NCBI GenBank assembly: GCA_964016885.1
Contig: OZ024743.1
Coordinates: 101,246,001-101,310,000, forward strand
Source: Eledone cirrhosa
Taxonomy: Eukaryota
DNA: 64,000 nt
Direction: 5' to 3'
Positions 4,861 to 53,904 of this stretch are shown here, piece by piece; within the stretch, counting starts at the first letter, position 1; each line of letters begins with the position of its first letter. The notes under the pieces were generated by a model. It saw nothing but the letters and a program-made list of their open reading frames with translations, ran no database searches and had not been told where the DNA came from. The position numbers were made by a program, and so were the translations under genes.

Positions 4861-4861
4861 A

Positions 4862-14436: not shown

Positions 14437-14640
14437 AAATATAGAAGAGCTTCTACAGGACTAGAACTGTTTCATTCGTGAGAAATCATCTGGGAACTGG
14501 CTGTCCAAGTAAGTAGTGGTATTTATATCTTTTCTTTTCTGGTGGTAGGAGAGGGTGGGGATTTGGATGGGTGGAGGTCATTGGTTGAAGGATTTAAAGA
14601 AAAGGGAGTTCATTAAAAGCTAATTCTTTAAAGCTATAAA
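14435..14640 (-). mobile_element. PLE pLTR fragment with hammerhead-like motif (14448-14498, core CAGATGA)
   Basis: Reverse complement of 34455-34660. Confidence 0.7.
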
Positions 14641-14642
14641 TA

Positions 14643-16095
14643 TCTGAGGCAATTTCTTGGTTCCAAGAATTACCCGAAAAATATCACACTCGCTTCTTGC
14701 AACTCAACATAGAAGACTACTATGCTTCTATCTCAGAGCCCCTCCTGAAGGACGCACTTACTTTTGCCAGGAACTTTACCACCATAACTGACGCTGAGCA
14801 AGATGTAATCCTGCATGCCCGTAAGACCTTCCTACACCACGAGGGATCTTACTGGATCAACAAGAAGTCTCAGACCCCATTTGACGTCAGCATGGGAGCG
14901 AGTGATTCGGCTGAAATAAGCGACCTCGTGGGCCTGAACATTTTACATCACATGAAGAACCTCTTTACTGGCCTCACTGGAGGTTTATACCGAGACAATG
15001 GCCTCTTCGCTTTGCACAAGGTTAACCCCAGAATCACTGATGGGTTGCAGAGAAACTTAAGCTCGTTCTTCCATAATCTAGGATTTAGTATAACCATAGA
15101 ATCTAATATGACTAGGGCCAACTTTTTAGACGTCACCATCGACCTAGATACTTTATTACCCGTAGAGTCTATTACCCGTACCACAAACCTAACGAGTCCC
15201 TTAGATATATTAATGTTAATTCTAACCCCCCCCCCCAAACATCACTGATAACTTAGTAAAAAGCGTCTCAATTAGAATCTCTGGCCTCTCGGCCAATGAA
15301 GATATATTTAACGCCTCCGCCTCCTACTACAATGACGCCCTCGCCCGCAGCGGATTTAAAGAAAAGATAACTTACCTAGAAACCACCGCAAGACTACCTA
15401 GGAGGAATAGGGATAGGCAGATTAGTTGGTACAACCCCCGCCCCCTCAATAGAGAGGTCTCTACACCTATAGCTAGGACTTTCTTCACTTTGCTGAACAC
15501 ACACTTCCCCATACAACATAGGTACTACACCATCTTCAATAAGAACACAATAAGACTCTCCTACTCCACTACACCTAACCTAGCTAGGAATATAGCCAAT
15601 CTCAATTCTAAAAAATTAAATAAGCCAACTGCCCCCGAACCCAATTTGAAGCCTTGTGCAATTGCCTAAATAAGGAAGCCTGCCCACTTGAAAACAAATG
15701 CCTGACAAATGATATCGTATACAAATGTGATATCATCTCAGGCACCGATGATAGCAACAACAAAAAGACTTACATCAGCATGACTTCCAATAATTTTAAG
15801 ACACGGTGGTATGCCCATAACCACTCCTTCAGAAGACCGGACAAATCAAATCAGACACTCGCCTCCTATGTCTGGGAACACAAAAGGAACTCCACCCCAC
15901 CACACCCTTCACGCTTAAATGGAAAATACTCCAGAAATCGCGCTCATACAAGGGAGGACACAAGTACTGCGACCTTTGTATCTCAGAGAGCTACGAAATA
16001 TTATTTGCCAAGGGCCCGCTACTGAACAAACGCTCTGAACACTGCCAGAATTATATGCACAAAAACTTTGCAACTTTCAAATACCTTAAGCTAGT
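14643..16095 (+). pseudogene. Penelope-like (Naiad-type) RT plus GIY-YIG, 5'-truncated and frameshifted
   Basis: QLNIEDYYASIS, FDVSMGASDSAEISDLVGL, GGLYRDNGL, NFLDVT, CNC..CPL..CL..IVYKC..TYISMT..FKTRW. Confidence 0.85.
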
Positions 16096-19796: not shown

Positions 19797-19861
<65 letters not shown>

Positions 19862-19866
<5 letters not shown>

Positions 19867-22800
19867 TAACAGATTAAAGTTTAAGCAAAGAATCGCTGCT
19901 TTCACCCTTAACGGGATCTTCTGAAACTGACAAAGTCAATCTGTAAACGCAGAAGTGAATATTTCAAAAAACGTTGCAACCGGAGGAAGACAGGAAGACG
20001 ATACTTTGGTTCGTGGAAACGTTCCCCGGCAAAGAACGGGAAAAAACGAATATAATACGTCATTATTTGGATCGGTGAAAAACAATTACACGCAAAGACA
20101 GAACCACGTTTATGGTATAAAAAAAAGTCGTAGACTAATATTCTCTTTCCCTCGGTTGAGCACTCTATTGCATGCAGAAACAACATCTGAATATTTCTAC
20201 AAAGAACATACCCGTACCAAGCAGGAAAACATACCTAAAACTCATGATACAGAAAACAGACGCGTTCATTAAAAGGTTGCGTTGGCGTGCCTTTTATTTT
20301 GATATCAAGTGGAGCGCAGTACTAACCATCAACTACTACATAATGCTGTAACTAAGGATTACCGTAAAACTAATCGGTGCGTCATCAATGAAGTCAACGA
20401 TGCTGGGTTTAAAATCACCTCTGATCTCAACATCCTGGACCGGGCCGAACTTCTGGACCCTATTTCTCCCCACTTTACCCTGAAGGATCACAAATCCAAT
20501 TTTCCCTCTATTCGGCTTATTAACCCTACGAAGTCCGATTTAGGTAGACTTAGTAAAAGGATTCTTGATAGAATTATACCTGAAATTAGAAGTTTGGCCC
20601 CTCTTGTACCGTGGAACAATTTTTTCGCGGTGATTGATTGGTTCAACGGCATATGCAACAAGGAACATTGCCATTTTATCCAATTCGACATCAATAATTA
20701 CTACTCCTCCATCACTTTACCACTTCTCCTTAGAGTTATCAATTTCGCTAAAACACTCACAGTGGTTAAGGATTTCGAAATTGATGTCATCCTCAATGCC
20801 CGTAAGTCGGTGATTAATTTCGACGACTCTATTTGGATAAAAAATCCAATAGTACCCCATTCGACGTGAGTATGGGCGCCAGCGATTCTGCGGAGGTTAC
20901 TGATCTTATCGGCCTTTTCCTTCTTTTCTCTATCAAGGACGAATTCCCAACGTGGGCGGTGGTTTGTACCGTGATGATGGTCTTTTGACCATGACTAAGT
21001 GCGGCCGTCGTGCTTGCGACAGATTCAGAAAAGAACTCACAGCCTTCTTTAAAGGCTTCAACCTCTCTATACAGGTTGAGGCCAACCTCTCGGCCGTTAA
21101 TTACCTCGACGTTACCCTCAATTTATCGAATGGCTTGTATTACCCGTATAGAAAGCCGAATGATACGCTTAATTACATAAGTAAGCATTCCAACCATCCT
21201 GCCAGCATAACCAAGAACCTGGTAAGAAACGTTTCGTTGAGGCTTTCCCGTCTATCTACTAACGAGCATATTTTCAACGACCATTCCACATATTACAATG
21301 AAGCTCTTGCTCGGAATGGATTTGTCGATAAGGTAGCATATACAGAGTACGAGAATAGACCTAGAAGATATAGATCCCGACGCATTATATGGTATAACCA
21401 ACCATATAATATGGAGGTGGCCACACCATTAGCTAAGATCTTTCTATCCCTTATTACGAAGCATTTTCCCCCTACACATAAATATAGTAAAATTTTTAAT
21501 AGAAATACTATTAAAATTTCTTACTCTACGACTCCTAACCTTGCACATAACATCACAGCTTCAAATTTAGCTAAACTACCTAGCCGTAGGAACACGTGCA
21601 ACCCTGTAGTTAGTACTAACTATAATTGTAGGAATCGGGTTGATTGCCCTCTATCCAGGAAATGCCTCTCTAGTAACATTGTCTACAAATGTAAGGTTGA
21701 AACACTCACGTCCCGTAGGGCCTACATAGGGTTAACCGCCAATAGATTCAAGCAGCGTCTTTACATGCATACCTATTCTTTTCGTTACCCTCTAAGAAGG
21801 AATATGACGTCACTTTTAGCTTATATATGGAGTCTAAAAGACAACCACACCCAATACAAGTTACACTGGGAGATCCTAGCTAGGGCTAGATCGTATAACG
21901 GAAATAAAAGACCATGTGACCTCTGCGTCGCTGAGGCCCTGGAAATACTCTACGCCACGGACCACATCTTAAACAAAAAATCTGAGGCAATTTCGGCTTG
22001 TAAACAAATTGCACAAAACTTTCCTGTATTACAGCCCCACATTATACCCTAACGGATAGTACGATCTATACGCGGATATTTTACGTCTTGATGTGGTAGC
22101 TAAGTATATGTTATGTTTATACTATTACTTATTTGCATAGGTAAGTATTTATTACCTGTATGTTTTGTGAAGGTACGTATACTTTCTCGTACGTATATTT
22201 GATTGTATATGTTATGACGTATATTTTTTTATATATTCTGGTACATACGCTTTTGGCTATGTGTATACGTGAGTTTTGCGTCTGTGCGAGTATGCGGGTT
22301 AGTACGTATGTAGGGTGTGTGTATATGTGTACTTCGTGTTTTGGTTGACGTATGTCTCCGAACATTTGTGTATTTACATGTAGGTATGTGTGTGCGCTTG
22401 TTATATACGTATTTATTTATTTATATACGTTTATTTAATTATTTGTATACACGCACACGCACACACACATATTTATATGTGCGTGTTTTTGTATACCTTT
22501 GGCGAGTGTTTTCGCGTATGCTTGTGTATGTACGTATTTGGATGCGTGTATGTATCTATTTAATTTCAATTACCTCTGTATTTTATCCTAAACGGACGGT
22601 AGTCCGTTTAGTAATATTGTTGTGGTCGTGTTTTCGTTGGCATTTACTTTATTCTTAACTCTGAAGCGGAATATCATTCGGTTTCCTAGTTAGAATTTTA
22701 GTCTACGACTTAAGTTATACCATTTACGTGGTTTTGTCTTTGCGTGCAATTGTTCTCCACGCTCCACATATGACGTATTATCTTCGTTTTATCCGTTCAT

Positions 22801-23115
22801 TGCCAAAGAACTTTGCTATGAACCACCTAAGAGAATATTAGTCTACGACTTCTTTTATACCATAAACGTGGTTCTGTCTTTGCGTGTAATTGTTTTTCAC
22901 CGCTCCAAATAATGACGTATTATATTCGTTTTTTCCCGTTCTTTGCCAGGGAACGTTTCCACGAACGAAAGTATCGTCTTCCTGTATTCCTCCGGTTGCA
23001 ACGTTTTTTGAAATATTCACTTCTGCGTTTACAGATTGACTTTGTCAGTTTCAGAAGATCCCGTTAAGGGTGAAAGCAGCGATTCTTTGCTTAAACTTTA
23101 ATCTGTTATTTTAAT
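19862..23115 (+). mobile_element. Penelope-like (Naiad-type) element with inverted pLTR ends
   Basis: 19862-20135 is the reverse complement of about 22840-23115. RT/EN remnants lie between them. Confidence 0.88.
20200..22052 (+). pseudogene. PLE RT plus GIY-YIG endonuclease, frameshifted
   Basis: RLRWRA, FTLKDHKSNF, RLINPTKSDLG, FIQFDINNYYSSI, GLYRDDGL, NYLDVTLNL, CPL..CL..IVYKC..AYIGLT..FKQR, CDLC. Confidence 0.9.
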
Positions 23116-23213
23116 AAATATTTGCTCTACGGTTCTTATATATTTGATATATATTTATCCTTATCTTTGGATTTTAGTCTTCAAATTTATTATTATTATT
23201 ATTATTATTATTA

Positions 23214-25501
23214 CTAAGGCTGTTCGATGGGCCCGCGTGGCGGAGGCGCAGCGTGGTAATAAAACCACAATTCGGTCTTTGGCGGACCGAGACGGACACG
23301 AGATAAGCGATTCCAAGCGGATGTGTGAGGCCTTTCGCCAGCACTTTGCTCGGTTGTTCAGGGAGAGTGGCAAGTCAGAGAGAGTAGCGGATTTCAGTCC
23401 CTACCTTGACGGCTTGCCGCACATCTCGACGGTCGACGCTGAGCGCTGCGAAAGGCCGATTACTTCAGCCGAAATTCAGGACGCCCTTGTCGGCTGCATG
23501 AGGCGCAAGTCACCCGGTTTGGATGGCCTGCCCTACGAGCTTTACGTAAATATGCCAGACTTGTTCTCCGAACTCCTCGAAACACTCTACTGCAACTGGC
23601 AGCAGAATGGGAGTATTCCCAGTTCTGTGAGCAGGGGAGTGGTGACGCTGATAAGGAAAGACGAGAACAAGAGGGATACATTAGACAACTTCAGGCCCAT
23701 AACTCTGCTCAACACAGAGTTTAAGATTTTGGCCAAGGTGTTAGCAAAGAGATTGGCGCTTGTCGTCGAGGATTTGGTTGGGGAGGCGCAAACTTGCGCA
23801 AACCCAGCCAGGTCCATACACGACAATCTCCACCTCATGCGATACATCATAGAGAGGGTAGGGTGTAAACCTGGCTTCGGTAGGGCACTGATCAATTTAG
23901 ATCAATCGAAAGCATTCGATAGGGTCGACCATCGGTATCTGGAGTTTGTCCTCAAAGCGGCTGGCTTCGGCCCTGTCTTTAGAAGCTGGATCGTTGCAAT
24001 GCACAGCGGCACACGCTCGGTGGTCAAGGTTAATGGCCACCTCTCGGAACCATTTCGGCTCTCCCGATCGGTCCGTCAAGGGTGCCCTCTCTCTTCCCTT
24101 CTGTACATATTGACTCTCGAGCCTTTACTGCGGAAGCTGGAGCTGTTGCAGGGCATCCCGCTCGAACCGGGACGTGGAAAGGCGGTGTCGGCTTATGCGG
24201 ACGACATCACCGTGATGGTGTCGAACACCTCAGAAATCGAGGTGGTCGGCACCTTACTGAAGGAATATGAAAGGTTGACAGGAGCCAAACTTAACCCGGA
24301 AAAATCGGTGGGCTTGCAGCTCGGAACCTGGAGAGGCAAGCCCATGCCGTCCAACAGCGTCGTGGGGCGCTGGACGGACGGACCGGTAAAGTTGCTCGGG
24401 GTTTGGTTCGGACTAGACCTCCAGGTGGAAAAGAATTGGGACGAGGTAACGAGCAGAGTAGCCAGTCTCACCCAAAAATGGGCTGGGAGGAAGCTATCAC
24501 TGAAAGGTCGCGCGGAGGTGGCGAATGCGTACATCGCGTCCGTCATCTACTACCGCCTAACCGTTGTGCCTTGCCCCCGTCCGCGCCTCGTCAAGTTGGA
24601 ACGGCTCCTCTTCAAATTCTTGTGGAGGGGACAAGTTCCGTTGGTGAGGCGGTCCATCTGCTGCCAGCACCCTCTACGCGGAGGGCTGGGCATGCCGTGG
24701 CTAATGATGCGCAGACATGTGTTGAGGCTGCGACATCTCCAGATATTCTGCCTCAATGGTGAACAGGTGTGGTCGCCGTTTATCAGACGGGCCTTTCCGC
24801 AGCTCATTTCTTTGACTGAGCTGCAGACCTGAGTCAAGAAGAGACCGAGACTGGGTGACTGGCACCTGGAATGTTGCCAGGCACTCACTGTCCTCTACCA
24901 AGCGGGCAATGCGATCAGTGGAACTTCCACTCTCGAGTTCTATAGAGGATTAGTGGTGGGCAAGTGCGATGACGCACTCGGAGAAGCTTTGGGCCTCGAC
25001 GAAGTCGAACTGACTAGTCTGTATCGGAGGACTTTTGAGCCGGGGACGATGGACAATTTCCAGAAATCCCTCGCTTGGCAGTGCTACCGGGGGGCACTGC
25101 CGGTTCGGGATAAACTCTACAGGCACGGAAGTGCTGTCAGACGGACCTGCTCAAGATGCGCACAGAACGACGAAACCGTTCAGCACGCACTTGTCCAATG
25201 TCCGTGCATTACTGACTTGTGGAGTTATGTCGAACAGCTACTGTCACGTGTGGAACGAATCCGGCTATCGGCCGAGTCCATAGTGAAGATCGAGCCGCCA
25301 CCTTCCTTACGTCAAGAAGAGCAGGACATTTTCCTCTGTCTGGTGGCAGTTGCGAAAGAGATTATATGGTGGACCAGGTTGAAAGGACTAAAGACAGACA
25401 CTTTTCTCTTCGGCCAATCCCTCATCAACTTCTTCAAGTTTCACCTGGAAAGGAGGGTGAGGGTGGAGAGAGAAGTGCTGCCCCCCCAGTACATTTGCTA
25501 A
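23214..25501 (+). pseudogene. Tx1/L1 ORF2 RT and zf-RVT region, interrupted by TGA at 24830-24832
   Basis: The homologous copy near 35290 has TGG (Trp) at this position, so this is a nonsense mutation. Confidence 0.85.
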
Positions 25502-26169: not shown

Positions 26170-26260
<91 letters not shown>

Positions 26261-26263
<3 letters not shown>

Positions 26264-29200
26264 AATTAAGTTAAAGTGTACATCTACATATGTATACGGA
26301 AGTATTAGTATGCATATAAATACACACATGTATACATATGTACATGTACTAAGTTTTTAACTAGACACTTTACAGTGAGTGTCAGCTAGTCTGTATGTAA
26401 CCACACAGACGGACCGGGTTTTAGAGTCATACGAGTTTTCAAGGAAACACATTTCCTCTATTCTCCAGAGGGCCAGACAGGAATATTGGACTAGTTTCGA
26501 TGTTATTACATCTCATCAGCAATATTTACCCATCTTCCGGCTTCTCTGGAGAATTGTAAAAGCACATATCGTTATATGCTTTTTCTATGAAAATTAGTAG
26601 TGGGTAGACTAATTTGCATAGAACGTGAGTCATTGTACGCACCGGTTCAGCGGAAACGATAAAAACAAATAACGAAACGAAATTAAATTTCGTTTCGCTT
26701 CTAACTCACTTTTGTATGACTGACGCTTAAACAATTAAGTTAAAGTGTACATCTACATATGTATACGGAAGTATTAGTATGCATATAAATACACACATGT
26801 ATACATATGTACATGTACTAAGTTTTTCACTAGACACTTTTCAGTGAGTGTCAGCTAGTCTGTATGTAACCACACAGACGGACCGGGTTTTAGAGTCATA
26901 CGAGTTTTCAAGGAAACACATTTCCTCTATTCTCCAGAGGGCCAGACAGAAATATTGGACTAGTTTCGATGTTATTACATCTCAGCAGCAATATTCACCC
27001 ATCTTCCGGCTTCTCTGGAGAATTGTAAAAGCACATATCGTTATATGCTTTTTCTATGAAAATTAGTAGTGGGTAGACTAATTTGCATAGAACGTGAGTC
27101 ATTGTACGCACCGGTTCAGCGGAAACGATAAAAACAAATAACGAAACGAAATTAAATTTCGTTTCGCTTCTAACTCACTTTTGTATGACTGACGCTTAAA
27201 CAATTAAGTTAAAGTGTACATCTACATATGTATACGGAAGTATTAGTATGCATATAAATACACACATGTATACATATGTACATGTACTAAGTTTTTCACT
27301 AGACACTTTACAGTGAGTGTCAGCTAGTCTGTATGTAACCACACAGACGGACCGGGTTTTAGAGTTATACGAGTTTTCAAGGAAACACATTTCCTCTATT
27401 CTACAGAGGGCCAGACAGGAATATTGGACTAGTTTCGATGTTATTACATCTCATCAGCAATATTTACCCATCTTCCGGCTTCTCTGGAGAATTGTAAAAG
27501 CACATATCGTTATATGCTTTTTCTATGAAAATTAGTAGTGGGTAGACTAATTTGCATAGAACGTGAGTCATTGTACGCACCGGTTCAGCGGAAACGATAA
27601 AAACAAATAACGAAACGAAATTAAATTTCGTTTCGCTTCTAACTCACTTTTGTATGACTGACGCTTAAACAATTAAGTTAAAGTGTACATCTACATATGT
27701 ATACGGAAGTATTAGTATGCATATAAATACACACATGTATACATATGTACATGTACTAAGTTTTTCACTAGACACTTTACAGTGAGTGTCAGCTAGTCTG
27801 TATGTAACCACACAGACGGACCGGGTTTTAGAGTCATACGAGTTTTCAAGGAAACACATTTCCTCTATTCTCCAGAGGGCCAGACAGGAATATTGGACTA
27901 GTTTCGATGTTATTACATCTCATCAGCAATATTTACCCATCTTCCGGCTTCTCTGGAGAATTGTAAAAGCACATATCGTTATATGCTTTTTCTATGAAAA
28001 TTAGTGGTGGGTAGACTAATTTGCATAGAACGTGAGTCATTGTACGCACCGGTTCAGCGGAAACGATAAAAACAAATAACGAAAGGAAATTAAATTTCGT
28101 TTCGCTTCTAACTCACTTTTGTATGACTGACGCTTAAACAATTAAGTTAAAGTGTACATCTACATATGTATACGGAAGTATTAGTATGCATATAAATACA
28201 CACATGTATACATATGTACATGTACTAAGTTTTTCACTAGACACTTTACAGTGAGTGTCAGCTAGTCTGTATGTAACCACACAGACGGACCGGGTTTTAG
28301 AGTCATACGAGTTTTCAAGGAAACACATTTCCTCTATTCTCCAGAGGGCCAGACAGGAATATTGGACTAGTTTCGATGTTATTACATCTCATCAGCAATA
28401 TTTACCCATCTTCCGGCTTCACTGGAGAATTGTAAAAGCACATATCGTTATATGCTTTTTCTATGAAAATTAGTAGTGGGTAGACTAATTTGCATAGAAC
28501 GTGAGTCATTGTACGCACCGGTTCAGCGGAAACGATAAAAACAAATAACGAAACGAAATTAAATTTCGTTTCGCTTCTAACTCACTTTTGTATGACTGAC
28601 GCTTAAACAATTAAGTTAAAGTGTACATCTACATATGTATACGGAAGTATTAGTATGCATATAAATACACACATGTATACATATGTACATGTACTAAGTT
28701 TTTCACTAGACACTTTACAGTGAGTGTCAGCTAGTCTGTATGTAACCATACAGACGGACCGGGTTTTAGAGTCATACGAGTTTTCAAGGAAACACATTTC
28801 CTCTATTCTCCAGAGGGCCAGACAGGAATATTGGACTAGTTTCGATGTTATTACATCTCATCAGCAATATTTACCCATCTTCCGGCTTCTCTGGAGAATT
28901 GTAAAAGCACATATCGTTATATGCTTTTTCTATGAAAATTAGTAGTGGGTAGACTAATTTGCATAGAACGTGAGTCATTGTACGCACCGGTTCAGCGGAA
29001 ACGATAAAAACAAATAACGAAACGAAATTAAATTTCGTTTCGCTTCTAACTCACTTTTGTATGACTGACGCTTAAACAATTAAGTTAAAGTGTACATCTA
29101 CATATGTATACGGAAGTATTAGTATGCATATAAATACACACATGTATACATATGTACATGTACTAAGTTTTTCACTAGACACTTTTCAGTGAGTGTCAGC

Positions 29201-32200
29201 TAGTCTGTATGTAACCACACAGACGGACCGGGTTTTAGAGTCATACGAGTTTTCAAGGAAACACATTTCCTCTATTCTCCAGAGGGCCAGACAGGAATAT
29301 TGGACTAGTTTCGATGTTATTACATCTCATCAGCAATATTTACCCATCTTCCGGCTTCACTGGAGAATTGTAAAAGCACATATCGTTATATGCTTTTTCT
29401 ATGAAAATTAGTAGTGGGTAGACTAATTTGCATAGAACGTGAGTCATTGTACGCACCGGTTCAGCGGAAACGATAAAAACAAATAACGAAACGAAATTAA
29501 ATTTCGTTTCGCTTCTAACTCACTTTTGTATGACTGACGCTTAAACAATTAAGTTAAAGTGTACATCTACATATGTATACGGAAGTATTAGTATGCATAT
29601 AAATACACACATGTATACATATGTACATGTACTAAGTTTTTCACTAGACACTTTACAGTGAGTGTCAGCTAGTCTGTATGTAACCATACAGACGGACCGG
29701 GTTTTAGAGTCATACGAGTTTTCAAGGAAACACATTTCCTCTATTCTCCAGAGGGCCAGACAGGAATATTGGACTAGTTTCGATGTTATTACATCTCATC
29801 AGCAATATTTACCCATCTTCCGGCTTCTCTGGAGAATTGTAAAAGCACATATCGTTATATGCTTTTTCTATGAAAATTAGTAGTGGGTAGACTAATTTGC
29901 ATAGAACGTGAGTCATTGTACGCACCGGTTCAGCGGAAACGATAAAAACAAATAACGAAACGAAATTAAATTTCGTTTCGCTTCTAACTCACTTTTGTAT
30001 GACTGACGCTTAAACAATTAAGTTAAAGTGTACATCTACATATGTATACGGAAGTATTAGTATGCATATAAATACACACATGTATACATATGTACATGTA
30101 CTAAGTTTTTCACTAGACACTTTTCAGTGAGTGTCAGCTAGTCTGTATGTAACCACACAGACGGACCGGGTTTTAGAGTCATACGAGTTTTCAAGGAAAC
30201 ACATTTCCTCTATTCTCCAGAGGGCCAGACAGAAATATTGGACTAGTTTCGATGTTATTACATCTCATCAGCAATATTTACCCATCTTCCGGCTTCTCTG
30301 GAGAATTGTAAAAGCACATATCGTTATATGCTTTTTCTATGAAAATTAGTAGTGGGTAGACTAATTTGCATAGAACGTGAGTCATTGTACGCACCGGTTC
30401 AGCGGAAACGATAAAAACAAATAACGAAACGAAATTAAATTTTGTTTCGCTTCTAACTCACTTTTGTATGACTGACGCTTAAACAATTAAGTTAAAGTGT
30501 ACATCTACATATGTATACGGAAGTATTAGTATGCATATAAATACACACATGTATACATATGTACATGTACTAAGTTTTTCACTAGACACTTTACAGTGAG
30601 TGTCAGCTAGTCTGTATGTAACCACACAGACGGACCGGGTTTTAGAGTTATACGAGTTTTCAAGGAAACACATTTCCTCTATTCTACAGAGGGCCAGACA
30701 GGAATATTGGACTAGTTTCGATGTTATTACATCTCATCAGCAATATTTACCCATCTTCCGGCTTCTCTGGAGAATTGTAAAAGCACATATCGTTATATGC
30801 TTTTTCTATGAAAATTAGTAGTGGGTAGACTAATTTGCATAGAACGTGAGTCATTGTACGCACCGGTTCAGCGGAAACGATAAAAACAAATAACGAAACG
30901 AAATTAAATTTCGTTTCGCTTCTAACTCACTTTTGTATGACTGACGCTTAAACAATTAAGTTAAAGTGTACATCTACATATGTATACGGAAGTATTAGTA
31001 TGCATATAAATACACACATGTATACATATGTACATGTACTAAGTTTTTCACTAGACACTTTACAGTGAGTGTCAGCTAGTCTGTATGTAACCACACAGAC
31101 GGACCGGGTTTTAGAGTCATACGAGTTTTCAAGGAAACACATTTCCTCTATTCTCCAGAGGGCCAGACAGGAATATTGGACTAGTTTCGATGTTATTACA
31201 TCTCATCAGCAATATTTACCCATCTTCCGGCTTCTCTGGAGAATTGTAAAAGCACATATCGTTATATGCTTTTTCTATGAAAATTAGTAGTGGGTAGACT
31301 AATTTGCATAGAACGTGAGTCATTGTACGCACCGGTTCAGCGGAAACGATAAAAACAAATAACGAAACGAAATTAAATTTCGTTTCGCTTCTAACTCACT
31401 TTTTTATGACTGACGCTTAAACAATTAAGTTAAAGTGTACATCTACATATGTATACGGAAGTATTAGTATGCATATAAATACACACATGTATACATATGT
31501 ACATGTACTAAGTTTTTCACTAGACACTTTACAGTGAGTGTCAGCTAGTCTGTATGTAACCACACAGACGGACCGGGTTTTAGAGTCATACGAGTTTTCA
31601 AGGAAACACATTTCCTCTATTCTCCAGAGGGCCAGACAGGAATATTGGACTAGTTTCGATGTTATTACATCTCATCAGCAATATTTACCCATCTTCCGGC
31701 TTCTCTGGAGAATTGTAAAAGCACATATCGTTATATGCTTTTTCTATGAAAATTAGTAGTGGGTAGACTAATTTGCATAGAACGTGAGTCATTGTACGCA
31801 CCGGTTCAGCGGAAACGATAAAAGCAAATAACGAAACGAAATTAAATTTCGTTTCGCTTCTAACTCACTTTTGTATGACTGACACTTAAACAATTAAGTT
31901 AAAGTGTACATCTACATATGTATACGGAAGTATTAGTATGCATATAAATACACACATGTATACATATGTACATGTACTAAGTTTTTCACTAGACACTTTA
32001 CAGTGAGTGTCAGCTAGTCTGTATGTAACCACACAGACGGACCGGGTTTTAGAGTCATACGAGTTTTCAAGGAAACACATTTCCTCTATTCTCCAGAGGG
32101 CCAGACAGGAATATTGGACTAGTTTCGATGTTATTACATCTCATCAGCAATATTTACCCATCTTCCGGCTTCTCTGGAGAATTGTAAAAGCACATATCGT

Positions 32201-33670
32201 TATATGCTTTTTCTATGAAAATTAGTAGTGGGTAGACTAATTTGCATAGAACGTGAGTCATTGTACGCACCGGTTCAGCGGAAACGATAAAAACAAATAA
32301 CGAAACGAAATTAAATTTCGTTTCGCTTCTAACTCACTTTTGTATGACTGACGCTTAAACAATTAAGTTAAAATGTACATCTACATATGTATACGGAAGT
32401 ATTAGTATGCATATAAATACACTCATGTATACATATGTACATGTACTAAGTTTTTCACTAGACACTTTACAGTGAGTGTCAGCTAGTCTGTATGTAACCA
32501 CACAGACGGACCGGGTTTTAGAGTCATGCGAGTTTTCAAGGAAACACATTTCCTCTATTCTACAGAGGGCCAGACAGGAATATTGGACTAGTTTTGATGT
32601 TATTACATCTCATCAGCAATATTTACCCATCTTCCGGCTTCTCTGGAGAATTGTAAAAGCACATATCGTTATATGCTTTTTCTATGAAAATTAGTAGTGG
32701 GTAGACTAATTTGCATAGAACGTGAGTCATTGTACGCACCGGTTCAGCGGAAACGATAAAAACAAATAACGAAACGAAATTAAATTTCGTTTCGCTTCTA
32801 ACTCACTTTTGTATGACTGACGCTTAAACAATTAAGTTAAAGTGTACATCTACATATGTATACGGAAGTATTAGTATGCTGATGAGATGTAATAACATCG
32901 AAACTAGTCCAATATTCCTGTCTGGCCCTCTGGAGAATAGAGGAAATGTGTTTCCTTGAAAACTCGTATGACTCTAAAACCCGGTCCGTCTGTGTGGTTA
33001 CATACAGACTAGCTGACACTCACTGTAAAGTGTCCAGTGAAAAACTTAGTACATGTACATATGTATACATGTGTGTATTTATATGCATACTAATACTTCC
33101 GTATACATATGTAGATGTACACTTTAACTTAATTGTTTAAGCGTCAGTCATACAAAAGTGAGTTAGAAGCGAAACGAAATTTAATTTCGTTTCGTTATTT
33201 GTTTTTATCGTTTCCGCTGAACCGGTGCGTACAATGACTCACGTTCTATGCAAATTAGTCTACCCACTACTAATTTTCATAGAAAAAGCATATAACGATA
33301 TGTGCTTTTACAATTCTCCAGAGAAGCCGGAAGATGGGTAAATATTGCTGATGAGATGTAATAACATCGACACTAGTCCAATATTCCTGTCTGGCCCTCT
33401 GGAGAATAGAGGAAATGTGTTTCCTTGAAAACTCGTATAACTCTAAAACCCGGTCCGTCTGTGTGGTTACATACAGACTAGCTGACACTCACTGTAAAGT
33501 GTCTAGTGAAAAACTTAGTACATGTACATATGTATACATGTGTGTATTTATATGCATACTAATACTTCCGTATACATATGTAGATGTACACTTTAACTTA
33601 ATTGTTTAAGCGTCAGTCATACAAAAGTGAGTTAGAAGCGAAACGAAATTTAATTTCGTTTCGTTATTTG

Positions 33671-33675
<5 letters not shown>
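26261..33675 (-). mobile_element. Retrozyme-like tandem array: 14 x 469-bp hammerhead-containing units (ribozyme sense = minus strand) plus about 1.7 inverted units, within (TA)n
   Basis: Exact 469-bp period (26261, 26730 ... 32827). The strand switches at 32877-32879, each unit carries a hammerhead, and no coding motif was seen. Confidence 0.9.
26482..26526 (-). ncRNA. Type I hammerhead ribozyme, unit 1 (repeated every 469 bp to about 32579-32623; plus-strand copies at 32879-32916 partial and 33341-33385)
   Basis: AATATTG-CTGATGA-GATGT AATA ACATC-GAAA-CTAGTC-CAATATT: 7-bp stem I, intact core, 5-bp stem II, palindromic ACTAGT stem III and a GUC cleavage triplet. Confidence 0.92.
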
Positions 33676-33745
<70 letters not shown>

Positions 33746-39011: not shown

Positions 39012-39690
39012 TGTGTCTGTCAGCATACATGTAGATGCGCGTGTGTTCGTGTGAATGTATATGTGTTTATGTGTTTAAATGTACGTATGTGTGTGAATAT
39101 GGGAATGTGACTGAATCAATGTGTGAGTTTTTCTGAAGGGATATGAAATGAAATGAGAAAGGAGAGAGAGAAAGGGAAAATAAAGAGAAAGGAAAGGAAT
39201 AAACCGGCTTCGATTTCATTAATATATTTTATTATTCCTTCTATTTAACTATAAATATTGTTTTAAAGTTATATCTATTTAGTTTCATAAAGACAATCAG
39301 AACTGAATCTGTCCGACTACCCCGTCATCACCCTCTTTAGGGTCTGTGGAAAGTGGGGGTGGAGGGTGGGGGTGGAAAGAGTACTGGGTGAATGTAGAAA
39401 TAGTACTGGGTTAACTTAATATTGAGAGCAGCATTTACTACGTACCAGAGGTCCGCACTAAGTTAAAAGCAGTATATTACTATACTATAAAGCTATAGTA
39501 CTATACTATAAAGTTATAGTACTATACCACCTTTATGTTGCTTTTTCAAAAACATGAAGGCCCCTTTATAGTATATCCTACAGACCCCGCACTAACCTAA
39601 TATATCCCTGTGTGGTGAGGACTGTTCTGCCCTCCAGCAAATGTAAGGAAATGTAGGTACAAGTGGAGAAACTAGTAGATTTTCTTAACC

Positions 39691-40065
39691 CTCTCATTAG
39701 TATATTTCTAATGAGAGACACTACCTCTCATTAGTATATTTCTAATGAGAGACACTACCTCTCATTAGTATATTTCTAATGAGAGTCACTACCTCTCATT
39801 AGTATATTTCTAATGAGAGACACTACCTCTCATTAGTATATTTCTAATGAGAGACACTATCTCTCATTAGCATATTTCTAATGAGAGACACTACCTCTCA
39901 TTAGCATATTTCTAATGAGAGACACTACCTCTCATTAGCATATTTCTAATGAGAGACACTACCTCTCATTAGCATATTTCTAATGAGAGACACTACCTCT
40001 CATTAGTATATTTTTAATGAGAGTCACTACCTCTCATTAGTATCTTTCTATGAGAGTCGCTACCT
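39691..40065. repeat. 34-bp tandem repeat x11, each unit a 10-bp-stem hairpin
   Basis: CTCTCATTAG-TATATTT-CTAATGAGAG-ACACTAC at 39691, 39725 ... 40031. Confidence 0.95.
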
Positions 40066-45950: not shown

Positions 45951-46556
45951 CATATACATATGTATATATATATATATATATGTATATATATTTCGTTTCT
46001 GAATTTGTTTAGCAAGATTCTTTATCTGAAATCGTGTGTTGAAACCGATATTGTTATACTTTGGGAGGGTCATGTTGCCAATAAGAAACACACGCACCAG
46101 TTGCTTTCACTTCAATTTAATTTATTATATATTTATAAATTTACAAATTTATAAATTTCTGGTTGGTTGGTTGGTTCCACAACCAGATAGTTGTTTATAT
46201 ATATATAGTCATAGTTCTTTCGTCACACACTCTGTGACCTCTTCAGTGACTGGGGATTTCTTTCTTCGTTTCTGTGCCTTTCCTTTCTTCTATCCTACGC
46301 CATTTTGTTTGTGTGTGGGTTGCGTGCTCAGTTTGCGCATGCGCCACATCCGGGTGTCTGTGTGTGTTTGTGTTCATTTTTCTATTTTTCTATTTATATT
46401 TTTCTATTTGTTTGTTTATTTATTTATTTATTGTTGGTTGGTTGTTTGTTCTATGTGTGTGTGTGTTTTCATTTTGTCTTGTGTGTGTTTTCATTTTGTG
46501 TGTGTTTTCAATTGTAAGTTGTTTGTTCTATGTGTGTGTGTGTTTTCATTTTGTCC

Positions 46557-49500
46557 TTAATTGTAAGTTGTGATGTTGCTGTTCCACTCATATTTTCTAT
46601 TTAATTTTGGTTTTAATTCTTTTATGCTTACTGCCTCTGTAATTTGCCTAAACATTGCGTCTTTCTTGTGTGTGGATTCTATTTTTATTTCTATGCTCTC
46701 TAATTTACCCCTGTGTTCTATCTTAGCATGTTGGTAGAGCACAGATGATTCTTTATTATCTTGGAGGTCTCGCCAGTGTTCATTTATTCGTTCCCCTATA
46801 CTACGAGCTGTCTCACCTATGTACACTATATTTTTGTTTCTACATTGTCCTTCAGTACATCTTATGCTATATACTACATTTCTAGTTTTACAGTTAATAT
46901 GGGGGCTTATTTTACAGGTTATACATTTCTTATCTATACATGAGGGTCTTTGGAACGGGTATGTCTTGCTAATAAGTGTTTTTACGGAGGTACCAGGTCT
47001 TTCTACTATCTTAATATTGAGATTATGTTTCTTTAGGGCCCTTCTAAATTTGTAGGCTAGTTCGCCTCTAGGGGTTGTATTGATGAACATTACACTCTGG
47101 TATTTATTGCTATCATACCATGAGTTTATTCTATTGGCCTTGTTCTTAGTTCTTTCTATTCTATTCCAAAATTTGCTCCTATACAAGGGGCAGGTCCCAT
47201 TTATGTCATTATTTACCATTTTTTCCCATTTGGTTCTGGCTCCTTTATACACTCTGATTCTATCTCTCTGATTGTAGCCAGAGAACTGCATACGGTGGAT
47301 GAAGTGTTGTATGTGTCTCTCTAGTTCTTCGGGGTTGCACATGCGGGACACATTTCTCATCACCCGTACCAAATCCGCAATCAGTATGTTGATTTTGGTA
47401 TGGTCCGAAATGGCCGAGTTTCGGTGGATCAGGTGTTTGGAAGTCATGGGTTTGGCATAATGGGAATGGAGGATTTGTTTTTGGTTGTTAATTGTATCTA
47501 ACCAGAGCTCTGTGTCTAGTACAGGTAATCGATGGTTGGGGTGTCTACTTGGGTAGTCTATAGTAACTCTAATGCTCTGGTGGATGGAGTTTGCTATTTG
47601 CTGGATGCTTTCCATTGTGTTTTTCTCTAGTTCCTGACTGTTCTTTAGTGGGGGTGTCTTAACTACGATGTTTATATCATCTACGTAGCGGGAGTACATT
47701 ATCAGGGTTAAGCTGTCTTCTAATTGTTCATTAAGTTTTTGTTTAAGTCTACTGTCCCACCATACCATGAATAAGTTAGCTATGTCGCCTGCAATGCTAA
47801 CACCAATGGCTGCTCCTTCCTCTTGGGCATATGTTTTACCATTAAATTTGAACATATGTTCCTTAAGGGTTAATTTTATGCTGGCCCCTACCGCATGTGC
47901 AATCATTTTCTTCAGTTCATCGTGGTTTTCGGGTGTCCGTATGGCTCTGGTCCACCCGTTCCATCTATCTGTGTGGGTTTTCTTGGCCATTGAGGTAATG
48001 GTAGGTGGTCTGCCTCTTGCTGGTCTTGTAGGGCACAGGTTGCTAAGGTCATAAGTGTCTAGGTAACTATTACTATGGGTAAGCTTAAGTAGAAGTCCCA
48101 GCTCACTGGTATCAATCCCACGGAACTCAACCTTGCTCTCGCTGATCATTTCGACGCATTTCTCCACAGCAAAATCCACGTCAATAGATGGATACAGGGA
48201 CACAACATCCATACTGCCTATTATGCAGTTTGTTAGGTCCCCAGATCGGTTACCCGCGCCGATTCTGCTGAGGAGGTCCTCCGTGCTGTCACACACATCT
48301 GGGGACATCTCAATGATGGGGCGTATGATCAGGGAGAGGAAGTAGGACAGTCTGTAGTTACTAGCAATGTTAGCCCCACAGACTGGCCGTGTTGGTGGTC
48401 CCGCGACAGGGTCCCAGCCCGTTTTATGGTCTTTTCGAAGCCCATACAACGCTGGCACGTCATTGTTCCAGGCCTGGAAGTTGTTGGCAGTCCTTTTGTT
48501 GGGCTGCATTATATTTGTCCACATCACCATATGGGCATTGAGGGTTTTTTCTCTATCCTCATGCTCCTGTGGTGTTACCTCTCTTGTGTTAGTGATGTGG
48601 GGTTGCATTGCCTGGATGTAGTTTGGCAGGCTGTCAACCGACATTCTGCCAGACTTGTCTGTTGGAAAGCATGCTATCTCTCCATTACGCGAGCGCTGCA
48701 TGAGCTTACGCAAGCCATTTGCAGATTCTTCTCCCAGTTGCTGGGCCTCTATTCTATTATGCTTCTTGCTATACTGTTCTATAATATTTCTAAGTTCGGA
48801 TTTAGCTATACTAAATTGTGCTTCTGTTTGTTCATCGACCTGCGACGGCAACTGCGTGCGTTTGTTAAATGGCAAAGTCGTGGCGTGGACTCGTCGCAGG
48901 TCGAATGATTTATCGGAGGGGTTATAAAACGGAGAGTTCCAGGCTGCTGCTTTATGTGTACTAGTGCTATTGTTATTGTTAGTTGTGTTGTTTCTATTTC
49001 CACCAACAGCAGCAGCCTCAGCTTCATGGTTGTTTCTATGTCTCTCATAATTACTCCTGTCTCTTTCCACTGGCTCAACGTTGTTATCTACCCTATTTTG
49101 TGTGTCTGTGTGTTCGTCTTGGTTATTCTCTTTGTCCTTAGTCTCCCTTTTCCTTTTAATCCTATTACTTTCTCTTATTTCTCTGATTTCCGTGCTACTG
49201 TCATTACTTGTTTTCTGTGTCTGTGTGTTTGTTAAGATTGTGGTGGTGGTGGGAGGCATTGAATGCGTGTGTGTTGTTGTTGTTGATGTGTGTTGTTGTT
49301 GATGTGTGTTGTTGTTGTCTCCGTGTGTGTGTGTGTTATCGTTGTTGTGTGTGTTGTTATTGTTGTTTGTGTTTGCGTGTCTGTTGTTGTTGTATCTGGG
49401 TATGTTGCTATTGTTGTTGTTGTTGATGTGTGTGTTGTTGTTATTGTTGTCTCCGTGTGTGTTGTTATTGTTGTTTGTGTCTGCGTGTCTGTTGTTGTAT

Positions 49501-49694
49501 CTGGGTATGTTGCTATTGTTGTTGTTGTATCTGGGTATGTTGCTATTGTTGTTGTTATTGTTGTTTGTGTCTGTGTGTCTGTTGTTGTTGGGATGTGTGT
49601 TGTATATGTGTGTGTGCGTATATTGTTGCTTTTGTTTTTGTTTTTGATGCTCCAGCGTAGTTTCGTAAATGATTTTTCTATTTCTGACAGACAA
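46557..49694 (-). CDS. PLE reverse transcriptase plus C-terminal GIY-YIG endonuclease (1045-aa open frame)
   Basis: PTDKSGR, LYGLRKDHK, RPVCGA, SMDVVSLYPSI, GAAIG, RYVDDI, LPVLD, C..C..C..C linker, NVVYSIRC..YIGETARS..ERINEH, RQITEA. Confidence 0.92.
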   Translation of the reverse strand: MSVRNRKIIYETTLEHQKQKQKQQYTHTHIYNTHPNNNRHTDTNNNNNNNSNIPRYNNNNSNIPRYNNRHADTNNNNNTHGDNNNNNTHINNNNNSNIPRYNNNRHANTNNNNNTHNNDNTHTHGDNNNTHQQQHTSTTTTHTHSMPPTTTTILTNTQTQKTSNDSSTEIREIRESNRIKRKRETKDKENNQDEHTDTQNRVDNNVEPVERDRSNYERHRNNHEAEAAAVGGNRNNTTNNNNSTSTHKAAAWNSPFYNPSDKSFDLRRVHATTLPFNKRTQLPSQVDEQTEAQFSIAKSELRNIIEQYSKKHNRIEAQQLGEESANGLRKLMQRSRNGEIACFPTDKSGRMSVDSLPNYIQAMQPHITNTREVTPQEHEDREKTLNAHMVMWTNIMQPNKRTANNFQAWNNDVPALYGLRKDHKTGWDPVAGPPTRPVCGANIASNYRLSYFLSLIIRPIIEMSPDVCDSTEDLLSRIGAGNRSGDLTNCIIGSMDVVSLYPSIDVDFAVEKCVEMISESKVEFRGIDTSELGLLLKLTHSNSYLDTYDLSNLCPTRPARGRPPTITSMAKKTHTDRWNGWTRAIRTPENHDELKKMIAHAVGASIKLTLKEHMFKFNGKTYAQEEGAAIGVSIAGDIANLFMVWWDSRLKQKLNEQLEDSLTLIMYSRYVDDINIVVKTPPLKNSQELEKNTMESIQQIANSIHQSIRVTIDYPSRHPNHRLPVLDTELWLDTINNQKQILHSHYAKPMTSKHLIHRNSAISDHTKINILIADLVRVMRNVSRMCNPEELERHIQHFIHRMQFSGYNQRDRIRVYKGARTKWEKMVNNDINGTCPLYRSKFWNRIERTKNKANRINSWYDSNKYQSVMFINTTPRGELAYKFRRALKKHNLNIKIVERPGTSVKTLISKTYPFQRPSCIDKKCITCKISPHINCKTRNVVYSIRCTEGQCRNKNIVYIGETARSIGERINEHWRDLQDNKESSVLYQHAKIEHRGKLESIEIKIESTHKKDAMFRQITEAVSIKELKPKLNRKYEWNSNITTYN

Positions 49695-50401
49695 CTAATC
49701 ATATTTACCTTCTTGAATGTCGCAAATTTGGGTGGCAGACGTAACACAGACATTTCATTATTATCTATTTCCGTGTTTCCATAAATGTTGGTATTTTCAT
49801 TGTTGAACTCATCAGATAATGAGGTGTCGGCCATGTTGATACCGTCAATTTTGTCGGGATATCTATTGGTATACTCTATAGTATCCCGATTTAGCTTTGC
49901 CTGTTTAAGCCACTTTAATTTTCTGTTAAAGTGCTTATTACATTCTTGAGTAATGTACTGTTCTTCGGGGCGTATAAGGCTTATAAATGTTAGTTTTTCT
50001 GCTGGTGTGGTGATTTTAGATATTTCTTGTATTAGATTACGCTTTAGTTTTTCTTGATGACTTAATTCTCTATAGATCTTCTTTTTTATGTTTAGAATTA
50101 AAGTTCGTTTTAGCCTATCTGCTTGTTTTTTGGTGAGTTGTAATCTTCTAACGTCGGTATTGATGGTGTTGGTGTAGATTCTAGAAGTGGTGCACAGTTT
50201 TATGAAGCGTAGTTGTCGAGATGTTATGGTTTTTCGTAGACAACAGAACATGGTGGTTTTCAGTATCTTGTTAGCCTGGCTAAGGCTTACGATATTTCGT
50301 TTCTGAATTTGTTTAGCAAGATTCTTTATCTGAAATCGTGTGTTGAAACCGATATTGTTATACTTTGGGAGGGTCATGTTGCCAATAAGAAACACACGCA
50401 C
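49232..50401 (-). CDS. PLE N-terminal region, out of frame (-1) with the RT ORF
   Basis: VLRLPPKFA...EIEKSFTKLRW is the usual PLE N-terminal motif. The ORF begins inside the pLTR. Confidence 0.75.
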   Translation of the reverse strand: MRVFLIGNMTLPKYNNIGFNTRFQIKNLAKQIQKRNIVSLSQANKILKTTMFCCLRKTITSRQLRFIKLCTTSRIYTNTINTDVRRLQLTKKQADRLKRTLILNIKKKIYRELSHQEKLKRNLIQEISKITTPAEKLTFISLIRPEEQYITQECNKHFNRKLKWLKQAKLNRDTIEYTNRYPDKIDGINMADTSLSDEFNNENTNIYGNTEIDNNEMSVLRLPPKFATFKKVNMISCLSEIEKSFTKLRWSIKNKNKSNNIRTHTYTTHIPTTTDTQTQTTITTTIATYPDTTTTIATYPDTTTDTQTQTTITTHTETTITTTHTSTTTTIATYPDTTTTDTQTQTTITTHTTTITHTHTETTTTHINNNTHQQQQHTRIQCLPPPPQS

Positions 50402-50736
50402 CAGTTGCTTTCACTTCAATTTAATTTATTATATATTTATAAATTTACAAATTTATAAATTTCTGGTTGGTTGGTTGGTTCCACAACCAGATAGTTGTTT
50501 ATATATATATAGTCATAGTTCTTTCGTCACACACTCTGTGACCTCTTCAGTGACTGGGGATTTCTTTCTTCGTTTCTGTGCCTTTCCTTTCTTCTATCCT
50601 ACGCCATTTTGTTTGTGTGTGGGTTGCGTGCTCAGTTTGCGCATGCGCCACATCCGGGTGTCTGTGTGTGTTTGTGTTCATTTTTCTATTTTTCTATTTA
50701 TATTTTTCTATTTGTTTGTTTATTTATTTATTTATT

Positions 50737-52033
50737 GTTCAAATTTAATGGTAAAACATATGCCCAAGAGGAAGGAGCAGCCATTGGTGTTAGCATTGCA
50801 GGCGACATAGCTAACTTATTCATGGTATGGTGGAACAGTAGACTTAAACAAAAACTTAATGAACAATTAGAAGACAGCTTAACCCTGATAATGTACTCCC
50901 GCTACGTAGATGATATAAACATCGTAGTTAAGACACCCCCACTAAAGAACAGTCAGGAACTAGAGAAAAACACAATGGAAAGCATCCAGCAAATAGCAAA
51001 CTCCATCCACCAGAGCATTAGAGTTACTATAGACTACCCAAGTAGACACCCCAACCATCGATTACCTGTACTAGACACAGAGCTCTGGTTAGATACAATT
51101 AACAACCAAAAACAAATCCTCCATTCCCATTATGCCAAACCCATGACTTCCAAACACCTGATCCACCGAAACTCGGCCATTTCGGACCATACCAAAATCA
51201 ACATACTGATTGCGGATTTGGTACGGGTGATGAGAAATGTGTCCCGCATGTGCAACCCCGAAGAACTAGAGAGACACATACAACACTTCATCCACCGTAT
51301 GCAGTTCTCTGGCTACAATCAGAGAGATAGAATCAGAGTGTATAAAGGAGCCAGAACCAAATGGGAAAAAATGGTAAATAATGACATAAATGGGACCTGC
51401 CCCTTGTATAGGAGCAAATTTTGGAATAGAATAGAAAGAACTAAGAACAAGGCCAATAGAATAAACTCATGGTATGATAGCAATAAATACCAGAGTGTAA
51501 TGTTCATCAATACAACCCCTAGAGGCGAACTAGCCTACAAATTTAGAAGGGCCCTAAAGAAACATAATCTCAATATTAAGATAGTAGAAAGACCTGGTAC
51601 CTCCGTAAAAACACTTATTAGCAAGACATACCCGTTCCAAAGACCCTCATGTATAGATAAGAAATGTATAACCTGTAAAATAAGCCCCCATATTAACTGT
51701 AAAACTAGAAATGTAGTATATAGCATAAGATGTACTGAAGGACAATGTAGAAACAAAAATATAGTGTACATAGGTGAGACAGCTCGTAGTATAGGGGAAC
51801 GAATAAATGAACACTGGCGAGACCTCCAAGATAATAAAGAATCATCTGTGCTCTACCAACATGCTAAGATAGAACACAGGGGTAAATTAGAGAGCATAGA
51901 AATAAAAATAGAATCCACACACAAGAAAGACGCAATGTTTAGGCAAATTACAGAGGCAGTAAGCATAAAAGAATTAAAACCAAAATTAAATAGAAAATAT
52001 GAGTGGAACAGCAACATCACAACTTACAATTAA
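50737..52033 (+). pseudogene. Inverted 5'-truncated duplicate of the PLE RT-EN C-terminus
   Basis: Protein matches the minus-strand copy from FKFNGKTY to the stop, except WWD versus WWN. Confidence 0.92.
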
Positions 52034-52338
52034 GGACAAAATGAAAACACACACACACATAGAACAAACAACTTACAATTGAAAACACACACAAAATGAA
52101 AACACACACAAGACAAAATGAAAACACACACACACATAGAACAAACAACCAACCAACAATAAATAAATAAATAAACAAACAAATAGAAAAATATAAATAG
52201 AAAAATAGAAAAATGAACACAAACACACACAGACACCCGGATGTGGCGCATGCGCAAACTGAGCACGCAACCCACACACAAACAAAATGGCGTAGGATAG
52301 AAGAAAGGAAAGGCACAGAAACGAAGAAAGAAATCCCC

Positions 52339-52383
52339 AGTCACTGAAGAGGTCACAGAGTGTGTGACGAAAGAACTATGACT
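52339..52383 (+). ncRNA. Minimal hammerhead in the PLE pLTR (also 46207-46251 -, 50511-50555 -, diverged 52739-52783 +)
   Basis: AGTCA-CTGAAGA-G-GTCAC AGAGTGT GTGAC-GAAA-GAACTA-TGACT. Confidence 0.8.
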
Positions 52384-52538
52384 ATATATATATAAACAAC
52401 TATCTGGTTGTGGAACCAACCAACCAACCAGAAATTTATAAATTTGTAAATTTATAAATATATAATAAATTAAATTGAAGTGAAAGCAACTGGTGCGTGT
52501 GTTTCTTATTGGCAACATGACCCTCCCAAAGTATAACA

Positions 52539-52639
<101 letters not shown>

Positions 52640-52674
52640 TATACATATATAGGAAAAAGTATGACCCTGACACA

Positions 52675-52998
52675 CACAAAAACAAGATGGCGTACGACAG
52701 AACAAAGGAGAGGCACAAAAACAAAGAAAAGAATCCCCAGTCACTGAAGAGGTTACAGAATGTGTGACGAAAGAACTTTGACAATATATAAACAATCATC
52801 TGGTTGTGGAACCAACCAACCAACCAACCGGAAATTTATAAATTCCTAAATTTATAAATTTATTATAATAAATTGAAGTGAAAGCAACTGGTGCGTGTGT
52901 TTCTTATTGGCAACATGACCCTCCCAAAGTATAACAATATCGGTTTCAACACACGTTTTCAGATAAAGAAACTTGCTAAACAAATTCAGAAACGAAAT
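52675..52998 (+). mobile_element. Diverged solo pLTR of the same PLE family
   Basis: Similar to 52280-52540 and extends to AACGAAATATA before (TA)n. Confidence 0.85.
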
Positions 52999-53063
52999 AT
53001 ATATATATACATACATATGTATATATATATATATACATACATATGTATACATACATACATACA

Positions 53064-53865: not shown

Positions 53866-53904
53866 CATATATATATATACATATATATACATACATATAT
53901 ATAC

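Follow-up and report, generated by a model that had tools for sequence, protein, structure and literature searches.

A non-coding hammerhead repeat of Eledone cirrhosa is likely moved by Penelope-type enzymes that probably prime both arms of an insertion on one RNA

The pairing of hammerhead retrozymes with Penelope-like elements (PLEs) was proposed earlier (Cervera and de la Pena 2020, PMC7229834; Li et al. 2026, bioRxiv 10.64898/2026.07.22.740005), and in the available text of both papers it rests on co-occurrence, hammerhead type, pLTR homology or phylogeny. Fixed ends, a tail and head-to-head arms find no mention in the accessible text of either; the word 'inverted' occurs 0 times in the former. 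Circular RNA templates have been proposed (PMC4209133, PMC7229834). EN+ PLEs are known for an inverted, 5'-truncated copy and for a tail borne by one end of the inverted pair (Craig et al. 2021, PMC8557442; Arkhipova et al. 2013, PMC3846280), and the origin of this one-sided tail and of PLE tandem and inverted structures is named as a gap in the available text of the former (PMC8557442). For the anole Poseidon element PAc, two internal RT start sites bound the tail in vitro, both strands are cut and extended, uncleaved RNA is the dominant substrate and the enzyme is predicted to be a dimer; the accessible main text of that study holds no test of whether the two ends of an insertion use different sites or share one RNA (Frangieh et al. 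2024, PMC11167929). Chlamys MRC1 and Chlamys-N4 are non-coding, non-autonomous PLEs that form multicopy head-to-tail insertions at microsatellites (PMC8557442, PMC9977147), and an active autonomous/non-autonomous pair is reported in Chlamys (PMC9977147).

We analysed a 64,000-nt stretch (the window) of a 379-Mb contig in the 3.0-Gb genome of E. cirrhosa, which holds a retrozyme array with a 469-nt unit, arranged in two head-to-head arms, and a coding PLE (Table 1). Monomer positions are numbered from the predicted hammerhead cut. Each unit carries one type I hammerhead (CUGAUGA...GAAAC-UA-GUC, with helix I AAUAUUG/CAAUAUU), and intact copies take the type I form in fold prediction. Among 355 copies from 112 loci, 343 keep the core, with GUC or GUU as the cleavage triplet, and a compensatory A-U to U-A change in helix II separates the two main variants; an Rfam search with this hammerhead gave nothing at the gathering threshold. 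The array has no stop-free frame of 120 aa. As in animal non-LTR retrozymes, so far as the consulted text describes them, the repeat comes in tandem, has a non-coding, low-GC unit some hundreds of nucleotides long with a single type I hammerhead, and lacks LTR, PBS and PPT. Unlike the retrozymes described there, it shows no detectable pLTR homology to the window PLE, and the evidence presented here is an integration footprint. Sampled subfamilies are 82-100% identical to the window unit, and the older ones have a unit of 463 nt.

Table 1. Positions of retrozyme and PLE features in the window
Feature	Position	Strand	Remarks
(TA)n left flank of retrozyme	26174..26260	.	TA overlap with arm end at 26259-26260
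Long retrozyme arm, 14.12 x 469 nt	26259..32879	-	3' end at site B, position 230
Retrozyme head-to-head junction, 3-nt overlap TGC	32877..32879	.	Monomer positions 176 and 437
Short retrozyme arm, 1.71 x 469 nt	32877..33677	+	3' end at site A, position 299
Hammerhead core	32879..32916	+	Helix I 5' strand shortened by junction; predicted cut after 32909
Second hammerhead, short arm	33340..33385	+	Substitution in GAAA motif; likely inactive
Retrozyme 'tail', sites B to A	33609..33677	+	Contains a 25-nt near-perfect hairpin at 33639-33663
(TA)n right flank of retrozyme	33675..33740	.	TAT overlap with arm end at 33675-33677
PLE long arm, 4752 nt (1.10 of the 4304-nt monomer)	45988..50739	-	3' end at site A, 224 nt past hammerhead cut
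PLE RT + GIY-YIG coding region	46557..50377	-	CX4CX2C linker; CCHH motifs in EN part
PLE head-to-head junction, 4-nt overlap TGTT	50736..50739	.	Joins the two PLE arms
PLE short arm, 1807 nt	50736..52542	+	3' end at site B, 164 nt past cut
Minimal type I hammerhead in PLE pLTR	52339..52383	+	Further copies near 46210 and 50515 (-)
pLTR fragment, 90%-identical PLE subfamily	52670..53000	+	Ends at site A into (TA)n

A first-pass annotation of this DNA had noted that the retrozyme array changes strand at a TGC overlap and that both hammerhead-sense 3' ends run into (TA)n, and both readings held. The junction is not a perfect fold-back palindrome and each arm has its own private variants; because of these two features and the recurrence of the same architecture at dozens of other loci, an assembly artefact is improbable. 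For the coding PLE, divergent arms with both 3' ends in (TA)n were likewise found as described, and the TGTT microhomology is present, one base off the 50735-50738 first given. Its translation contains YVDD, VVY...C-x4-C...YIG and downstream His residues (GIY-YIG with CCHH), with weak profile matches (RVT_1, E 3e-4, under the curated cut-off; intron endonuclease, E 0.17). A CX2-5CxxC linker between RT and EN is described as the Neptune/Nematis pattern in the available text of PMC8557442, and the window element, judged by motifs alone, is an EN+ PLE of that type. It also has a pLTR with a minimal hammerhead, a partial tandem, an inverted copy and a tail. The ORF is frame-broken in an N/T/H-rich repeat, leaving an ATG frame of 381 aa; this stretch (window 49230-49610), in which the frame breaks in some other copies as well, resembles the N-rich inserts described for A. 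vaga PLEs (PMC3846280, as far as available). Intact ORFs of 1291 and 1266 aa occur elsewhere in the genome (loci L088 and L097). Numerous copies are 100% identical, and the family is young and abundant.

To see where insertions end, we searched the genome for the retrozyme (620 candidates, 39 scored) and examined 37 loci besides the window. By hand tally over these 38 loci, 63 of 66 main-insertion 3' ends lie at site A (positions 294-299) or site B (221-231), two sites about 70 nt apart that together occupy 17 of the 469 positions; the three stray ends fall at positions 118, 125 and 204. Because the query phase may have favoured arms ending at B, an independent sample was anchored on site A. 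Exact site-A ends followed by (TA)n number 1952 genome-wide (control, 0), which together with an empty paralogous site for one locus (L043) marks the copies as dispersed and mobile. The first 90 usable places, minus a duplicate (L138, of L137), gave 89 A-anchored loci; three that overlap the first sample (L110, L112 and L120) were kept in the 89 and left out of arm-pair tests. Positions 261-300, within the tail, are among the least variable of the unit, a measure that is circular at about 281-299, where the A-anchored search pattern fixes the sequence. The two window arms do stop at different monomer positions, as first annotated, but these are the two sites fixed genome-wide: the proposed permutation of 3' ends, as from reverse transcription around a circle, is ruled out by both samples. 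The inner (5') ends are uniform across the monomer (148 ends, KS p=0.43). The strand flip of the window array does lie at the start of the hammerhead core; given this uniformity its position there is a matter of chance, and targeting of the junction to the core is ruled out. The longest retrozyme arm seen, of about 23.6 monomers (L132, G000:C1:about 384.828-384.839 Mb), belongs to an 88% subfamily and ends at site A. At two loci (L044, 5376-5400, and L041), the site-B end has a few bases doubled or changed ahead of (TA)n, in a manner resembling re-priming.

The PLE has the same kind of ends. A genome search with EN-region DNA gave 941 candidates, of which 40 were scored and 33 loci besides the window examined; pLTR DNA as query yielded no hits, probably owing to the commonness of its words. 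PLE sites A and B lie 60 nt apart within the ORF start, and pattern searches counted 11,557 A ends and 13,052 B ends genome-wide. The tails found here (60 nt in the PLE, about 70 nt in the retrozyme) are longer than the 30-40 nt described for EN+ PLEs in the available parts of PMC8557442 and PMC3846280. As reported for the anole element, targets are AT-rich and the start sites of the window PLE fall inside the ORF start (main text of PMC11167929).

The two ends of an insertion use different sites. In the first retrozyme sample, 24 of 28 two-arm loci pair an A end with a B end, three have one odd end, and one is A+A (L035), which lies at the centre of an inverted flank duplication. Among the 89 A-anchored loci the partner ends at B in 55, at A in 0 and elsewhere in 5; there is no partner in 13, and the partner is undetermined in 16. 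The count of 55 comprises 44 arms called by script and 10 short stubs, corrected by hand (L124 and L184 added, L176 removed). For the PLE, the A+B rule holds in 22 of the 23 complete two-arm insertions, a set outside which stand four insertions with a broken partner arm (L086, the main insertion of L089, L090 and L100), seven single-arm loci and L095; adjacent divergent PLE end pairs at most 10 kb apart are A+B in 40 of 45 cases (C1, 0-42 Mb; p=8e-8). Exceptions to the rule are L085, five of these 45 pairs and the retrozyme locus L035. The integration layout that the first-pass annotation saw shared by retrozyme and PLE at one locus each is therefore shared genome-wide, and all four elements of the PLE footprint (two fixed 3' sites, a tail at one end, a head-to-head arm and an AT-rich target) occur in the retrozyme. 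Relative to known EN+ PLE tails, the one-end rule is here put in figures (89-96% across the PLE samples), linked to arms of the same variant and extended to a non-coding hammerhead repeat.

Where the arms meet, microhomology exceeds chance: among junctions with non-negative overlap, 10 of 13 in the retrozyme (p=5e-6, with 17.5% expected) and 5 of 8 in the PLE (p=0.002, with 14% expected) have an exact overlap of at least 2 nt. A further 14 retrozyme and 20 PLE junctions scored negative, owing to short inserts or a SNP halting exact extension, and one PLE junction could not be scored. Templated pieces 17-143 nt long, from the retrozyme, a LINE or an unknown source, lie at arm junctions of L095 (2874-2895), L052 (5443-5460), L184, L038 (4739-4817) and L158, and short pieces of this kind look like remnants of template jumps. 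Target site duplications (TSDs) of 12-15 nt were seen in informative flanks of two retrozyme (L042, L064) and two PLE insertions (L074, L098), with one of 29 nt at L055; (TA)n-flanked A-anchored loci show no TSD excess (2 of 43, vs 55 of 1806 controls). The retrozyme at L043 sits within an AT-rich site of a Hydra-type element that is uninterrupted in a paralogous copy in L158. Fixed ends, TSDs and non-TA targets, which had been named beforehand as grounds against the proposal, all occur; only the permutation claim falls with them, because the PLE too has fixed ends, and TSDs at non-TA flanks. Retrozyme and PLE insertions are stacked in one another's (TA)n flanks at L037, L042, L033 and L189, and PLE relatives of 70-90% identity in these stacks likewise have A+B ends.

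The two arms of a locus are closely alike. None of the 73 retrozyme arm pairs differs by more than 3.1% (median 0.7%), vs 26% of 10,442 between-locus pairs that are so close, and 61% of the arm pairs lie within 0.75%, vs 4.5% between loci. For 144 retrozyme arms, the nearest match is strictly the partner in 61, a tie in 39 and an arm of another locus in 44. In 19 of 20 PLE loci the two arms are nearer each other than the between-locus median, three further loci being too short for comparison, and the 3'UTR lengths of the arms are equal in 7 of 15 loci, vs 40 of 546 between-locus pairs. Judged from these comparisons, both arms of a locus stem from one source.

On this evidence, the reading we favour, with a probability of about 0.65, is that the 469-nt repeat is moved by a PLE-type RT/GIY-YIG enzyme that primes both arms, one at A and one at B, on one RNA. 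That PLE-type enzymes move the retrozyme seems to us highly probable, and the genome-wide two-site tail rule supports mobilisation in trans more strongly than the argument first made for it; that both arms are primed on one RNA we regard as reasonably probable. The enzyme would cut the two strands of its target, (TA)n or AT-rich DNA of another kind. Priming would take place at A from one DNA end and at B from the other, aided by 1-4 nt of TA pairing, a step whose footprint is genomic and whose chemistry we infer, and the 60-70 nt between the sites would become the 'tail'. Both cDNAs could then be copied from one template, a circle or an uncut multimer, the upstream-running cDNA displacing the other and each stopping at a random point. 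The cDNA 3' ends would be joined by the 2-4 nt microhomology or short templated insert seen as a footprint, after which each cDNA might serve as template for the second strand of the other. In LINE-1 twin priming, two target ends prime on one RNA and the cDNA ends are joined by microhomology, which yields divergent arms; it is occasional, with a variable internal site and non-overlapping arms. Here, in contrast, such priming is apparently the default, with two fixed sites and fully overlapping arms. Twin priming on one RNA would account both for the absence of A+A and B+B pairs and for the common variants. In a wider version, to which we give somewhat less than even odds, PLEs would integrate by default through twin priming on a single RNA, with a dimeric RT-endonuclease gripping the tail and priming the two cut target ends at the tail's borders, and with cDNA annealing replacing second-strand priming, so that a retrozyme, as a minimal parasite, needs only the tail and no pLTR homology; two polymerases would chase one another along one, possibly circular, template.

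Arms of the same variant could also reflect two RNAs from a single dominant source locus, or gene conversion between the arms. We consider it unlikely that each RT protomer takes its own RNA from the same source locus or cell while an asymmetric dimer forces one to A and the other to B. Such an arrangement would fit the unequal PLE 3'UTR lengths of the two arms in 8 of 15 loci (for example 443 vs 520 in L071), and three mixed insertions speak for it if they are single events: L095 joins a PLE A arm to a retrozyme B arm and L052 a retrozyme A arm to a PLE A arm, each head to head via a 17-21-nt retrozyme piece, and L158 joins a retrozyme A arm to a Hydra-type arm via a LINE piece. These insertions need either two RNAs or a later deletion. 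The PLE arms of L095 and L052 belong to the window family or a 95% relative, and L095 has no TSD. Against two RNAs, none of the 73 retrozyme pairs mixes subfamilies, although a non-coding RNA has no cis preference; the subfamilies, though unmixed, are similar in within-locus divergence; and no mix of window-family PLE and retrozyme occurs among the 89 A-anchored retrozyme or 30 A-anchored PLE loci.

A single priming event, with the second arm made by fold-back DNA copying of the first, akin to the self-priming suggested for A. vaga palindromes (PMC3846280, as far as available), would give same-variant arms and head-to-head geometry without a second RT, but it is very improbable: in L070, L072, L075, L078 and L099 the tail is present in the shorter A arm and missing from the longer, sub-monomer B arm, which means that neither was copied from the other and excludes fold-back there, and the A arm is the longer one in just 36 of 62 retrozyme loci. 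Equally improbable is that the repeat spreads as a satellite, through DNA-level processes or a non-PLE retroelement, and has (TA)n accumulation sites in common with PLEs and nothing more. Patchy variant sharing among the window monomers, which suggests some conversion or duplication, and the DNA-level duplications at L035, L087 and L137/L138 would fit it. Against it stand dispersed copies in their thousands, with 3' ends that are strand-specific and fixed at two sites and 5' ends that are random, as well as the A+B rule, TSDs and a tail described, in the available text of PMC11167929, as exclusive to PLEs.

Returning to one-RNA priming by a PLE-type enzyme, we asked which PLE would be the helper. 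The integration footprint identifies the kind of enzyme without singling out a PLE family, because Hydra-type PLEs too are abundant in the genome; the chance that the window PLE family is the helper we put at about even. Site A is AT^CG in both the window PLE and the retrozyme, and in both an antisense match of 18/21 adjoins it (reached by 19 of 5000 shuffles; the best of 142 PLE windows). Apart from this 21-nt match the retrozyme shows no detectable homology to the window PLE, whereas Chlamys non-autonomous PLEs, in the text available to us, generally have 3'-end sequence of the autonomous family. Comparison of the retrozyme with five Hydra-type fragments gave no specific similarity. Hydra-type matches in 5' flanks (6 of 16 single-arm loci vs 11 of 66 in the background) are not compelling. 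The mixed loci were not accepted as proof of helper identity: a later deletion could create them, and L158 similarly has a Hydra-type arm. L087 was ruled out as a PLE-retrozyme hybrid, the PLE part lying within a 1283-bp duplicate of adjacent DNA. Two decayed Hydra-type PLEs lie in the window (19861-22460 and 14640-16025), recognised by a CxCx5C-like linker, and Hydra-type PLEs are likewise described as targeting (TA)n (both from the available text of PMC8557442). The family of the first has 2494 genome candidates, its best other copies being 97-98% identical.

The form of the template was considered from the array variants. Arms traverse the hammerhead cut site many times, which suggests that the template is re-ligated or uncut. 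L174, with about 8 monomers across both arms and zero variants, has the uniformity expected of a monomer circle or of a homogeneous array. To test for a linear multimer, 36 loci were scored for variants that the arms share in register, counted from the 3' ends, and the overall difference is not significant (21 vs 11, p=0.11); in-register sharing is seen in L047, L182, L143 and partly L060, and the opposite in the window array, where variants are shared patchily among monomers. We judge a circular template to be as probable as not.

The helper of animal hammerhead repeats has so far been inferred from co-occurrence and phylogeny, and a PLE-specific footprint in thousands of copies constitutes insertion-level evidence. 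Such evidence for the pairing appears to be new, the pairing itself being previously in print; the open-access literature, as far as its text was accessible, gave no report of the tail rule for a retrozyme or of PLE twin priming. The A+B rule and the same-variant arms address the gap on PLE structures stated in PMC8557442, as available, and reduce it to a simple question, one RNA or two. The genome offers a candidate 70-nt cis-element together with natural open PLE ORFs.

The window further contains 68 copies of a satellite with a 55-nt unit and 11 copies of a 34-nt repeat, at 1-3760 and 39690-40065, with no relation to the retrozyme finding. Coding fragments at 58948-62464, 23102-25501, 53859-55938 and 4760-6569 are, by motif, what we take to be decayed Helitron-like and LINE-like sequences.
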